From positions 1 through 23,978 of IMG/VR virus record IMGVR_UViG_2600254997_000020: a stretch of 23,978 nt of DNA; one strand, given 5' to 3'. Positions 15,563-18,539 of this stretch are shown here, in pieces (the stretch's first letter is position 1; each line of letters starts with the position of its first letter). Source of the stretch: a virus (lineage: Duplodnaviria > Heunggongvirae > Uroviricota > Caudoviricetes). The translations under genes and the position numbers were made by a program. The notes under the pieces were generated by a model. That model had not been told where the DNA came from, made no database searches, and saw nothing but the letters and a program-made list of their open reading frames with translations.

Positions 15563-18539
15563 TATTTAGCTCCTTTGCCACACCTAATAACAGTTCCAGC
15601 AATCCGTCACCATTCATCAGTGATGCGGCAGCGGCCTCTTTGTCATGATACAACTGAAGAGCCATAGAGAATACTTCCGTTGCTGACGTTTTGGAAATAG
15701 TCGGTGATTTCTGCCGAATTTTCCCGGTGTTACTTACTGAGGCTGGCGGGTATACCTTCGCCATATAAATATTACTCAATCGAGATCTGAAGCACCATTC
15801 AGGCTTGCCACGCCCACCGATATTGACGAAAGATGGCTTATCCCCTTCAACATTGGCCTTCAGGAATGACCGGGCTTTCTCTAACAAACCAGGGTTACTG
15901 TACTCAAGATGATGACCCAGCTCGTGCCACAGTGCACTTGCATTTTCATCGTTCAAATTGACAGCAACAACACCATTTAGATTTGCATATGCCCTTCCCT
16001 GGTGGTGAACTACCTTTGATAAGGTCGATATTTTCCCGCCGGTCAGGCGATAAATATCAGCAAGTTCCTTGCGCAGGTCTATCCCACCATTCTGTCCAGC
16101 GCGGGCTTCTTCCACTTCTTCTGTGATAAAAGAGTCGGCCCACTCAAGAGCTTTTTCTTCAGATACGGATGAGTTTGCGATCGCACTGTTCATGGCAGAT
16201 AACACTTTCTCGTGGACCGAACCCATACTTCGCTGATTCATTTGCCAGCGTGTCTGCGGGTTATATGAGAATCGCTTAAGTAGTTGGTCAAGCTGCTCAA
16301 GTTCTTCTTCACTGACATACTTTTTAGCCTCACCAATAATGCCAGGGAGAATATTGCCGTTAGGATTAAACGCTCGCGAAAGGAAGAGTTTCAGCGCCCC
16401 CATGCCCTCCGATGCTTCAATATCACCAATAACCCGGTTAACAATGGCCGCACTCTTCGGATTAGCATCCGCCAACGCTCTGGCTACAATTTGCAGGGAC
16501 GATACGACCTCACGCTGCATATCCGTCCTGATCTCATCAATAAACTCTGGCGTTATGCCGTGCTCTTTAAGGATATCCCTGCCTTCCGCCGTTACCCCAT
16601 CGATATCTCCGACATGTTTATTAACCCGACTTTGCAATGCCTTAAATGCCTTCAGAATTCCACGGGAATCATCCGCTTTACTAACGGCCTTCCTGAATGC
16701 TGGCAAGAAGTCTGAGTTAACCTCATTTTGTTGATCGGCCCACTGAATGGAGGCTTCTTTCATCTCGTCCAGAGTCAGATCACCCAACGCGGTATGGTCT
16801 GTGAATATGAGCGACAACCTCTGAACCATTTCTGCCAATGGTGATGCCGAATGCGCCGCGCTAAGGAATGCTTTCACCCTGGTTGGGCGAATGGAAAACC
16901 AGTCAATAGCTGGTGGCATATCTCCGTTTTGTATCGCCTGCGCTATCTCATCAAAGCCGTCGCGCCCAAGGGAGGATGCGTGATTTAACAATCCGCGAAG
17001 TAACGAATTGCTGATACCGAATAATCGGCACCATTTATTCACGTCGGCAACAGGCATTCGAACAAAATGCGCAAGCACTTGTACAAGCTGTTCATCCTGG
17101 GGATCTGTGCGGGAAAGCAGCCTGATCAGATGAATAATGTCTTTGATGCCGGATGCCCGATGTAATAGCAAACTGGTATACGGAGCAACACCGTTGTAAC
17201 TACCGCCGGAAACGGACTCGAAAAGACCGCCGGATATCCCTTGCATGCCTTCGTTTTCCAGTTCCTGAGACACCTGGCGAAGGATATCCTGTAACGACAC
17301 ATCGCCGCCGCCAAACATATCCCCGAGCGCCTGGCCCTGGTGCTGTAACTCATCATTGATACGTTGCGCCATCAACTTAAAGGCGGTGGCCATACGCTTC
17401 GCGCTACGGTTATTCGCGACGATGAACAACGCGAGTGCTTTCACTTCCGGGGCCGTTTCGCTGAACATATCCCCCTGAGCAATAACATCGGTAATATGCT
17501 GGCCTGACTCCTTCGATTGCCTTACCAGGTCTACCGCATCTTTCAATGCCGCCAGCGCCTTTTTATCGAGGCTATCCGCTGTCTCAATGCCATCAACAAT
17601 AGTTGTCACAGCCTGCTTGTGCGCTTCTCCTGACAAAGCCTGCATCTGGACAAAATCATTGGCTGCCGCATTAAGCGCCGTCAGAACATTACGCATATCC
17701 GGATCAGGTTCTTCTGCAACCATCCTTACCAGGCGCGCATCCTTATATGCCTTGGCAAAGATCGCGTTTTGTATACGGTCTACAAGTTGCCGTGTTGGTC
17801 GCCCATCTTCAGTTACAAGGCCAGCCGCCTGTGTGGCACCAACTTGCGTCATAAATCCGCGAATAAACGCGTCATTACTGCGGCTAAGCAGATCTCCGCT
17901 TTCTGACGGGTTAAAAAGCGCCATCATCGCCGGTGTTATGCTGTCGGCATCAACAAAAGCCTTTTCACTGGCTGCCATTTCCTGAAGATCAGAAATATTT
18001 GAGTCCTTGGCAAACTGAACGCGGTCAACCTTAGTTAACCGGCGGCGCACCAGTACCGGAGCCGTCATTGATTCAACCTTTTCAGGTCGTATGCCGAATT
18101 CGGTCGCATGATCAATCAGGTACTCACGATACCGATCCGCATTGCCGTCCTGATAGGCTTTAATGATCCCCATGGTCCGTCCATTACCTGACTCAACGGC
18201 ATTGTCCTCACCAATTATCGGCGCGCCATGGCTGGATAGACCGGAATCGGTAAGCTGAGCAGGCCGCAAATCCTTGGATATCTGGTTAACCTGAAGAAGG
18301 CTGGATGCGCGGGTCCGGTCGCGCGGTTGAAGTTCCTGGGGATAGTCAGGATTAATTTTCCCATCCAGAGTATTGGATACCAAAAGAGCTGAGGCATCGA
18401 CGATATCAAACGCTGTTTTTACCTCGTCTCCCTTCGCTGTCACCACATACGAAACCCGCCCATAATCGGGCAAGTTCTTTAGCAGCTCGATCAGCGTTTC
18501 TATGCTGGTGGCCATTACCACCTGATCGCTTAAGCTCAT
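15552..18539 (-). CDS. ddrB: DdrB-like large Dar-operon protein (995 aa) with a C-terminal HExxH motif
   Basis: Long ORF directly downstream of the ddrA-like and darA-like genes. ATG at 18539. Contains WHELGHH (res 871-877). Call by operon position. Confidence 0.7.
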   Translation of the reverse strand: MSLSDQVVMATSIETLIELLKNLPDYGRVSYVVTAKGDEVKTAFDIVDASALLVSNTLDGKINPDYPQELQPRDRTRASSLLQVNQISKDLRPAQLTDSGLSSHGAPIIGEDNAVESGNGRTMGIIKAYQDGNADRYREYLIDHATEFGIRPEKVESMTAPVLVRRRLTKVDRVQFAKDSNISDLQEMAASEKAFVDADSITPAMMALFNPSESGDLLSRSNDAFIRGFMTQVGATQAAGLVTEDGRPTRQLVDRIQNAIFAKAYKDARLVRMVAEEPDPDMRNVLTALNAAANDFVQMQALSGEAHKQAVTTIVDGIETADSLDKKALAALKDAVDLVRQSKESGQHITDVIAQGDMFSETAPEVKALALFIVANNRSAKRMATAFKLMAQRINDELQHQGQALGDMFGGGDVSLQDILRQVSQELENEGMQGISGGLFESVSGGSYNGVAPYTSLLLHRASGIKDIIHLIRLLSRTDPQDEQLVQVLAHFVRMPVADVNKWCRLFGISNSLLRGLLNHASSLGRDGFDEIAQAIQNGDMPPAIDWFSIRPTRVKAFLSAAHSASPLAEMVQRLSLIFTDHTALGDLTLDEMKEASIQWADQQNEVNSDFLPAFRKAVSKADDSRGILKAFKALQSRVNKHVGDIDGVTAEGRDILKEHGITPEFIDEIRTDMQREVVSSLQIVARALADANPKSAAIVNRVIGDIEASEGMGALKLFLSRAFNPNGNILPGIIGEAKKYVSEEELEQLDQLLKRFSYNPQTRWQMNQRSMGSVHEKVLSAMNSAIANSSVSEEKALEWADSFITEEVEEARAGQNGGIDLRKELADIYRLTGGKISTLSKVVHHQGRAYANLNGVVAVNLNDENASALWHELGHHLEYSNPGLLEKARSFLKANVEGDKPSFVNIGGRGKPEWCFRSRLSNIYMAKVYPPASVSNTGKIRQKSPTISKTSATEVFSMALQLYHDKEAAAASLMNGDGLLELLLGVAKELNNAD

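Follow-up and report, generated by a model that had tools for sequence, protein, structure and literature searches.

The last ~175 residues of DdrB probably form a gluzincin-type domain that has an intact predicted catalytic set and would most likely cut proteins in cis or in its immediate vicinity. We regard it as very probable that the domain is a genuine zincin with a working active site; that it serves specifically in processing DdrB itself or its cargo is a narrower claim, which we hold with somewhat less than even confidence. The domain is already known as a prediction, on record since 2004 and 2017, and is no discovery of ours; the value of the present analysis is that it confirms the prediction. 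What we add are unbiased conservation counts, a confident model, the nearest solved structures, candidates for the third zinc ligand and the catalytic tyrosine, and the finding that standard domain libraries, Pfam PF18818 included, miss the family.

Results

DdrB in a P1-like darA operon

The window, by which we mean the whole stretch of 23,978 nucleotides analysed (IMG/VR record IMGVR_UViG_2600254997_000020, positions 1 to 23,978), carries on its minus strand a gene that is 98.6% identical in DNA to P1 ddrB across 100% of its length and 99.1% identical to phage RCS47. The order of the surrounding genes (Table 1) matches the annotation of the P1 darA operon, lydA-lydB-hdf-darA-ddrA-ddrB-hxr. 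Judged by this identity and these neighbours, the source DNA is a P1-like phage-plasmid and the reading frame is DdrB, the ortholog of P1 DdrB, with a calculated mass of 108.7 kDa. The protein has the make-up of a polyvalent protein, joining a ddrB-ParB domain to a zincin domain in a P1-like phage, its virion location being taken from the literature. A helical lead-in to the peptidase domain, starting at about residue 757, is kept in closer relatives only.

Table 1. Positions of genes, domains and candidate active-site residues in the window
Feature	Position	Strand	Remarks
hxr	15254..15562		downstream of ddrB
ddrB gene	15552..18539	-	995 aa + stop; from the ORF list and translation
ddrA	18552..18917		upstream of ddrB
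darA	18914..20833		upstream of ddrB
hdf	20835..21446		upstream of ddrB
147-aa ORF	21424..21867		position of P1 LydB, beyond hdf
109-aa ORF	21864..22193		position of P1 LydA, beyond hdf
DdrB-like ParB domain, N-terminal, residues 36-167	18039..18434	-	Pfam PF18763, E 2.1e-39
Zincin-type metallopeptidase domain (predicted), C-terminal, ~residues 820-995	15555..16082	-	
R849, 'RA' motif	15993..15995	-	between predicted strands 842-845 and 857-860, preceding the active-site helix; R in 78/83
HELGHHLE, residues 872-879	15903..15926	-	H872/H876 predicted zinc ligands, E873 predicted general base, E879 conserved acid at +3
H872 codon	15924-15926	-	
E873 codon	15921-15923	-	
H876 codon	15912-15914	-	
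E879 codon	15903-15905	-	
E914, invariant Glu	15798..15800	-	start of predicted beta-strand between the two catalytic helices; 83/83
Y925-x-A-K-x-Y930	15750..15767	-	family consensus PYVGKxY; candidate oxyanion-stabilising tyrosine(s); Y925 83/83, Y930 82/83
Lineage-specific insertion, residues 931-952	15684..15749	-	between Y930 and E955
E955-V-F-S958	15666..15677	-	family consensus TEVxSMGL; predicted third zinc ligand, 'glutamate helix'; invariant

A single HExxH motif, conserved in all relatives examined

Positions 15908-15930 read W-H-E-L-G-H-H in reverse complement. Translation confirms what an earlier note on this DNA had proposed, a zincin-like motif at about residues 869-882 with a further Glu three residues on (E879): the segment is SALWHELGHHLEYS, in which W-HELGH-HLE occupies 871-879. 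The protein holds no second HExxH. Among 200,000 shuffles of DdrB, HExxH appeared in 2.4% and HExxHxxE in 0.15%, so that the earlier estimate of a few percent for a chance motif was sound.

Searches of different design recovered the same domain. A tblastn search of phage genomes with the last 236 residues of DdrB matched 19 P1-like records and 72 distant ones (<60% identity), chiefly large Vibrio phages. At four distant loci the match is the C-terminus of a protein of ~640-1200 aa, and a five-sequence alignment (25-29% identity) leaves H872, E873, G875, H876, E879, E914, Y925, Y930, E955 and S958 invariant. As a guard against circularity, metagenome and IMG/VR contigs were scanned by the downstream-motif pattern alone, [AS][TS]E[VI]xS[MV]G[LI][QE]; the first IMG/VR scan gave P1-like loci only and was rerun led by a distant member. 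All 141 relatives so found with enough upstream sequence have HExxH upstream of the seed; it lies 60-79 residues ahead of the seed-motif Glu in 138 of them, and 136 carry Glu three residues past the second His. HExxHxxE is likewise present in 42/42 further family ORFs that come from the same loci and fall outside the strict seed. P1-like loci have SALWHELGHHLEYS in 82/82 cases, their 26 variable positions sparing every conserved residue. An exhaustive phmmer search of 1.84 billion cluster representatives, run with no motif seed, gave 395 matches at E<=0.001; 147 of the best 148 cover the core, and every one of these reads HExxHxx[ED] (147/147). A word-indexed homolog search returned few relatives until it was given the alignment of 83 sequences described below.

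This set of 83 relatives (<80% mutual identity, 17-44% identity to DdrB) was found mostly via the downstream motif, not via HExxH. H872, E873, H876, E914, Y925, E955 and S958 are present in 83/83, Y930 is Y in 82, E879 is kept in 81 and replaced by D in 2, and R849 is R in 78 and K in 3. The E955/S958 motif was the search seed for most of these sequences and is conserved also in the unseeded tblastn relatives. Non-conservation of the motif, which the earlier note had named as fatal to a peptidase, is thus the opposite of what we find, and the three residues it singled out (H872, E873, H876) do not vary at all.

Is the motif then a chance HExxH in a non-enzymatic region? The shuffling frequency of 2.4% and the lack of a peptidase label for the domain in Pfam, NCBIfam and PHROG would allow it. 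The motif is, however, invariant in every relative examined, and it is accompanied by further conserved residues and a zincin fold; we reject the chance reading on the conservation and fold results and regard its probability as practically negligible. Given this conservation across relatives, the HExxH is far beyond chance, and by its sequence it is part of a conserved zinc-protease-type domain.

A second reading keeps the zincin fold and the metal site and makes the domain a binding or packaging module, for instance in recruitment of DarB and Ulx to the head, with catalysis dispensable for Dar. We consider this unlikely, as the complete set of predicted catalytic residues (H, E, H, Y, E) does not vary among several hundred clusters at 17-44% identity, a pattern typical of active enzymes. 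Invariance of the full set argues for an active enzyme and not a relic.

A predicted zincin fold missed by the domain libraries

AlphaFold on a 33-sequence alignment gave a model with pLDDT 83.8 and pTM 0.82, whereas the model built from the sequence of residues 760-995 alone was unusable (pLDDT 38). In the former the predicted order is an N-terminal helix, strands, an HExxH-bearing helix at 867-881, an insert made of one helix plus a beta-hairpin, and a further helix with E955 at its start. This predicted secondary structure agrees with the zincin core described by Iyer et al. 2017 (PMC5512222), and the model contains the mixed beta-sheet, N-terminal helix, active-site helix and glutamate helix of that fold, which is shared by the zincin / gluzincin metallopeptidases (MEROPS clan MA, Pfam clan Peptidase_MA). 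The predicted fold speaks against a non-metal-binding context, the second outcome that had been named as adverse, and favours a putative peptidase.

Foldseek against viral models matched homologous phage proteins and, more weakly, proteins of phage head morphogenesis, a MuF C-terminal domain and a large polyvalent protein. Foldseek against the PDB gave no significant match and was judged too insensitive. For the C-terminus of DdrB, Pfam returned no match even at E<=10, PF18818 (MPTase-PolyVal) included, the N-terminal ddrB-ParB domain alone being detected; among 15 diverse relatives PF18818 appeared once, below threshold (E 0.14). NCBIfam and PHROGs likewise hold no peptidase annotation for the domain, which is matched by PHROG 19443, 'minor head protein'. 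Since none of the three libraries labels it a peptidase, most genome records list the family as hypothetical. Sequence and profile searches of the PDB gave only marginal matches, to FtsH and snapalysin around their HExxH (E 0.1-1.7), and none at E<=10 to lethal factor or the Pro-Pro endopeptidases (PPEPs). The comparison of the C-terminus with peptidase families suggested in the earlier note yielded a predicted zincin fold and no Pfam match.

The hhalign probabilities against known peptidases are 14% and 22%, and the PDB profile matches have E values of 0.1 or worse; these figures count against our best explanation.

Candidate active-site residues

From alignments to MtfA and lethal factor and from the Tyr-Glu spacing in PPEPs, we infer zinc ligands at H872, H876 and E955, a general base in E873, a catalytic Tyr in Y925 and/or Y930, and a second-shell acid in E879. 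In this scheme H872 and H876, on the helix at 867-881, would hold the metal together with E955 at the start of the helix at 956-965; E873 would serve as the base, stabilisation of the transition state would fall to Y925 and/or Y930, and the role of E879 would resemble that of the HExxHxxD Asp in MtfA and in anthrax lethal factor.

E955, the candidate third ligand, is invariant and aligns with the zinc Glu of MtfA, but E914 is equally invariant and E955 belongs to the search seed. E914 might serve structure or substrate binding, or be a ligand in place of E955. The earlier note had drawn attention to E879: its conservation holds up, but it is probably no third zinc ligand, E955 being the residue that aligns with the zinc-binding Glu of MtfA. 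As a third ligand E879 was rejected, its counterpart in the alignments with MtfA and lethal factor being a second-shell Asp.

The spacing from Y930 to E955 is 25 residues in DdrB because of a 22-residue insertion, and 5-7 in 66 of the 83 relatives. Inserts at this place are longer in the Citrobacter and Vibrio-phage relatives.

A recurrent C-terminal module of phage-head proteins

The domain ends the protein in 55 of 64 complete ORFs, where 98-138 residues separate HExxH from the stop; the same holds for about half of the 147 representatives drawn from the best 148 of the 395 phmmer matches. Among 65 relatives, the domains recognised in the N-terminal part are Phage_Mu_F (23), Phage_portal (2), and Phage_min_cap2, ddrB-ParB, ART-PolyVal and LPD3 (1 each). 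From its C-terminal placement and its Mu_F and portal partners, the peptidase domain is therefore a recurrent C-terminal module of phage-head proteins, be they MuF-like, portal fusions or polyvalent.

Discussion

The prediction of a peptidase in DdrB is not new. The GenBank record of P1 (Lobocka et al. 2004) calls ddrB a 'possible metallopeptidase', phage JL22 is annotated with a 'putative metallopeptidase', and Lenart et al. 2013 listed the DdrB family as a suspected zincin whose formal description was pending (PMC3650047). Iyer, Burroughs, Anand, de Souza and Aravind (J Bacteriol 199:e00245-17, 2017) assigned a C-terminal zincin-like MPTase domain to P1 DdrB and proposed autoproteolysis, with processing after injection or an effector role as alternatives (PMC5512222). 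Our case concerns the same protein, the same domain and the same HExxH and arrives at the same proposals, with no difference in kind. In the searchable literature we found no experiment on peptidase activity or zinc binding of DdrB. The reading of the earlier note therefore stands in its core, an invariant HExxH in a conserved domain of zincin fold, and needs correcting in the role given to E879, in the remark that a peptidase in a Dar protein would be unexpected, since these annotations and papers precede it, and in the suggested host-defence target, to which we return below.

What would such a peptidase cut? DdrB is found in the P1 virion (39 peptides, 59.5% coverage), where it 'aids DarB addition to capsid' (PMC9024508), and ddrB is dispensable for plaque formation (PMC10695390). 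The domain ends proteins that are packaged in the head, and Dar protects co-packaged DNA only, which together suggest a nearby target, DdrB or the Dar proteins. We thus favour a scheme in which DdrB and/or co-packaged Dar cargo would be cleaved in cis or over a short distance, either while the head is assembled or on ejection.

The idea that DdrB is itself cleaved has a history of its own. The claim of a processed 76-kDa form is said to originate in a gel study of 1981 and in the genome paper of 2004. Reports of this form are cited by Iyer et al. 2017 (PMC5512222). The supplement of Gonzales 2022 (PMC9024508) contains no DdrB peptide map. If all peptides came from a 700-aa fragment, the coverage of 59.5% would amount to ~85% of that fragment, which sits awkwardly with a loss of 300 residues.

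The cleaving enzyme could also be Pro, the P1 prohead protease, with the peptidase domain either removed or acting on another substrate. Pro matches T4 gp21 (HHpred probability 99.4%; supplement of PMC9024508), and in the P1 capsid protein cleavage follows Glu120. Cleavage of DdrB behind its (L/I)xE sites, which end at residues 659, 669 and 737, would give N-terminal fragments of 72, 73 and 80 kDa, and no site of this pattern yields a C-terminal fragment of ~76 kDa. A gp21-like Pro and sites giving fragments of 72-80 kDa are the grounds on which Pro may be the processing enzyme. The site search is, however, a simple pattern match, and processing by Pro leaves the conservation of the peptidase active site unexplained; we take this reading to be somewhat unlikely.

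Another possibility is an effector peptidase: DdrB would be ejected with the DNA and cleave a host protein, such as a component of restriction or of another defence. Protection from EcoB and EcoK requires DdrB, toxin peptidases (e.g. lethal factor) are among the nearest solved structures, and Iyer et al. 2017 list the role among their options (PMC5512222). Yet Dar guards only its own co-packaged DNA, and co-infecting Dar- phages stay restricted (PMC12707154), where a diffusible enzyme would behave differently; moreover, the ddrB phenotype is ascribed to failed packaging of DarB (table in PMC9024508). Action against host defence proteins, as the earlier note had it, is a poor fit to a system that works only in cis, and we judge it quite improbable.

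Cleavage in cis or at close range is the reading that we retain. Beyond it, we tentatively raise a possibility to which we give a rather low probability, that the DdrB-type domain is an uncatalogued zincin family (R-A ... HExGHxxE ... E ... PYVGKxY ... TEVxSMG) and a dedicated in-capsid cargo protease apart from the prohead protease. The nearest structural neighbours of such a family may be lethal factor, the PPEPs and MtfA. The protease would trim or release proteins that are packaged in the head and ejected (Dar, MuF-linked effectors, portal extensions), at assembly or ejection, and this would account for the C-terminal placement of the domain and for the fact that some phages carry paralogs in tandem.

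The Dar system of P1 is the model for DNA-protecting proteins that are packed in the head and injected, and P1 is under development for the delivery of cargo proteins. An active DdrB peptidase would constitute a built-in processing step controlling which Dar parts are packaged or released, and the same would hold for hundreds of MuF-, portal- and polyvalent-protein fusions. Our residue list for mutagenesis is H872, E873, H876, E879, E914, Y925, Y930 and E955.

Comparison with known systems

The closest solved structures are lethal-factor-like peptidases, namely Pro-Pro endopeptidases and lethal factor, together with MtfA. PPEP-1, -2 and -3 and the catalytic domain of lethal factor (MEROPS M34) have just 14-15% identity to the DdrB domain and share no Pfam match with it. 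At the sequence level the DdrB domain does not fall into M34: hhalign to the lethal factor catalytic domain aligns 19 columns at 22% probability, the helix alone (HEFGHAVD with HELGHHLE). The spacer from HExxH to Glu measures 59-95 residues in the DdrB family and 40-45 in PPEPs and lethal factor, and unlike theirs it carries an extra helix and a beta-hairpin with the invariant E914. PPEP-3 has the ligands H153, H157 and E197 and its oxyanion Tyr190 seven residues ahead of the Glu, and PPEP-1 has Tyr178 and Glu185 (PMC12828418); Y930 of the DdrB family comes close to this seven-residue distance in most relatives and departs from it in DdrB. In function, the PPEPs and lethal factor are no phage head proteins but act as toxins or regulators of adhesion after secretion.

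Membership of M90 (MtfA) is not found at the sequence level either: there is no Pfam match and hhalign gives 14.5%, though the catalytic residues align. In that alignment HEVAHKLD of E. coli MtfA pairs with HELGHHLE, Y925 pairs with a Tyr that precedes the zinc-binding MtfA Glu by seven residues, and the Glu of its EXXA motif pairs with E955-V-F-S958. The EXXA Glu binds zinc with the two His (PMC13482132). Unlike DdrB, MtfA is a cytoplasmic regulator-binding protein.

Functionally, the nearest analogue of DdrB is ArdC of plasmid R388. ArdC has a ssDNA-binding N-domain and, like the DdrB C-terminus, a C-terminal metalloprotease (zincin), and Iyer et al. 2017 place it with DdrB in one polyvalent-protein MPTase assemblage (PMC5512222). 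It too is antirestrictive, acting against type I HsdRMS, and it enters the recipient with the DNA; its protease activity is dispensable for antirestriction (PMC7213743), which is a caution for DdrB. Among head proteins the likeness is to the MuF/SPP1 gp7-like minor head proteins that bear C-terminal effector or MPTase modules, as the 23 of 65 relatives with Phage_Mu_F attest. The two differ in what precedes the module, a MuF N-terminus in the one and a ParB-like N-terminus in DdrB, which belongs to the multi-protein Dar system.

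Conserved features and occurrence of the peptidase domain

Two residues of the predicted DdrB metallopeptidase domain, E914 and R849, match the catalytic residues in their degree of conservation, the former being invariant in the 83 non-redundant relatives (less than 80% mutual identity) and the latter kept in 78 of them. To our knowledge, neither is assigned a role in the mechanism of lethal factor, PPEP or MtfA. Further on, an insertion of varying length is common to DdrB and its Citrobacter and Vibrio-phage relatives; in the majority of the family this place holds just 5-7 residues.

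In some phage contigs two to five consecutive paralogous genes of about 300-490 aa each form tandem arrays, and every one of them ends in a DdrB-type peptidase domain. This domain is also found at the C-terminus of a protein in a Caldilineaceae genome, joined to a portal domain, and a second such portal fusion is present among the 65 relatives whose N-terminal parts were searched.

Features of the window and of loci carrying relatives of the peptidase domain (L-numbers)
Feature	Location	Strand	Description
Two transposase ORFs	window 116-1322	+	DDE_Tnp_1
darB ORF	window 1301-7009	-	1902 aa; N6 methylase and SNF2/helicase domains
Transposase	window 11620-12747	-	375 aa; Tnp_DNA_bind and DDE_Tnp_1 domains
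HD + HD_assoc protein	window 13017-14471	+	484 aa; dGTP triphosphohydrolase-like
DdrB insertion	window 15684-15749	-	22 residues, between conserved Tyr930 and Glu955
E914	window 15798-15800	-	DdrB residue
R849	window 15993-15995	-	DdrB residue
Putative antisense ORF inside ddrB	window 17587-17985	+	132 aa; position of P1 iddB gene
Hdf	window 20835-21446	-	Pfam DarA_N (PF18788), E 9e-21
Tandem array of paralogs	L148 1-6601		arrays also in L222, L113, L121, L154, L127
Portal fusion protein	L095 1364-4378		1005 aa; complete Phage_portal domain, E 3e-111

The darA operon and the variable region

Given its Pfam match, Hdf is paralogous to the DarA N-terminus. At the other end of the window, the two transposase ORFs adjoin the 3' end of darB, whose ORF has 1902 aa, and the DarB protein of P1 has a size of ~250 kDa (PMC9024508); it thus looks as if an insertion sequence had removed the C-terminal part of the DarB encoded here.

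The HD + HD_assoc gene lies between ssb and hxr, in a variable region to which the 375-aa transposase belongs as well. In the place of the HD + HD_assoc gene, P1 carries isaA/IS1/isaB and phage JL22 a porin gene; it is probably an accessory gene of the window and possibly a defence gene.
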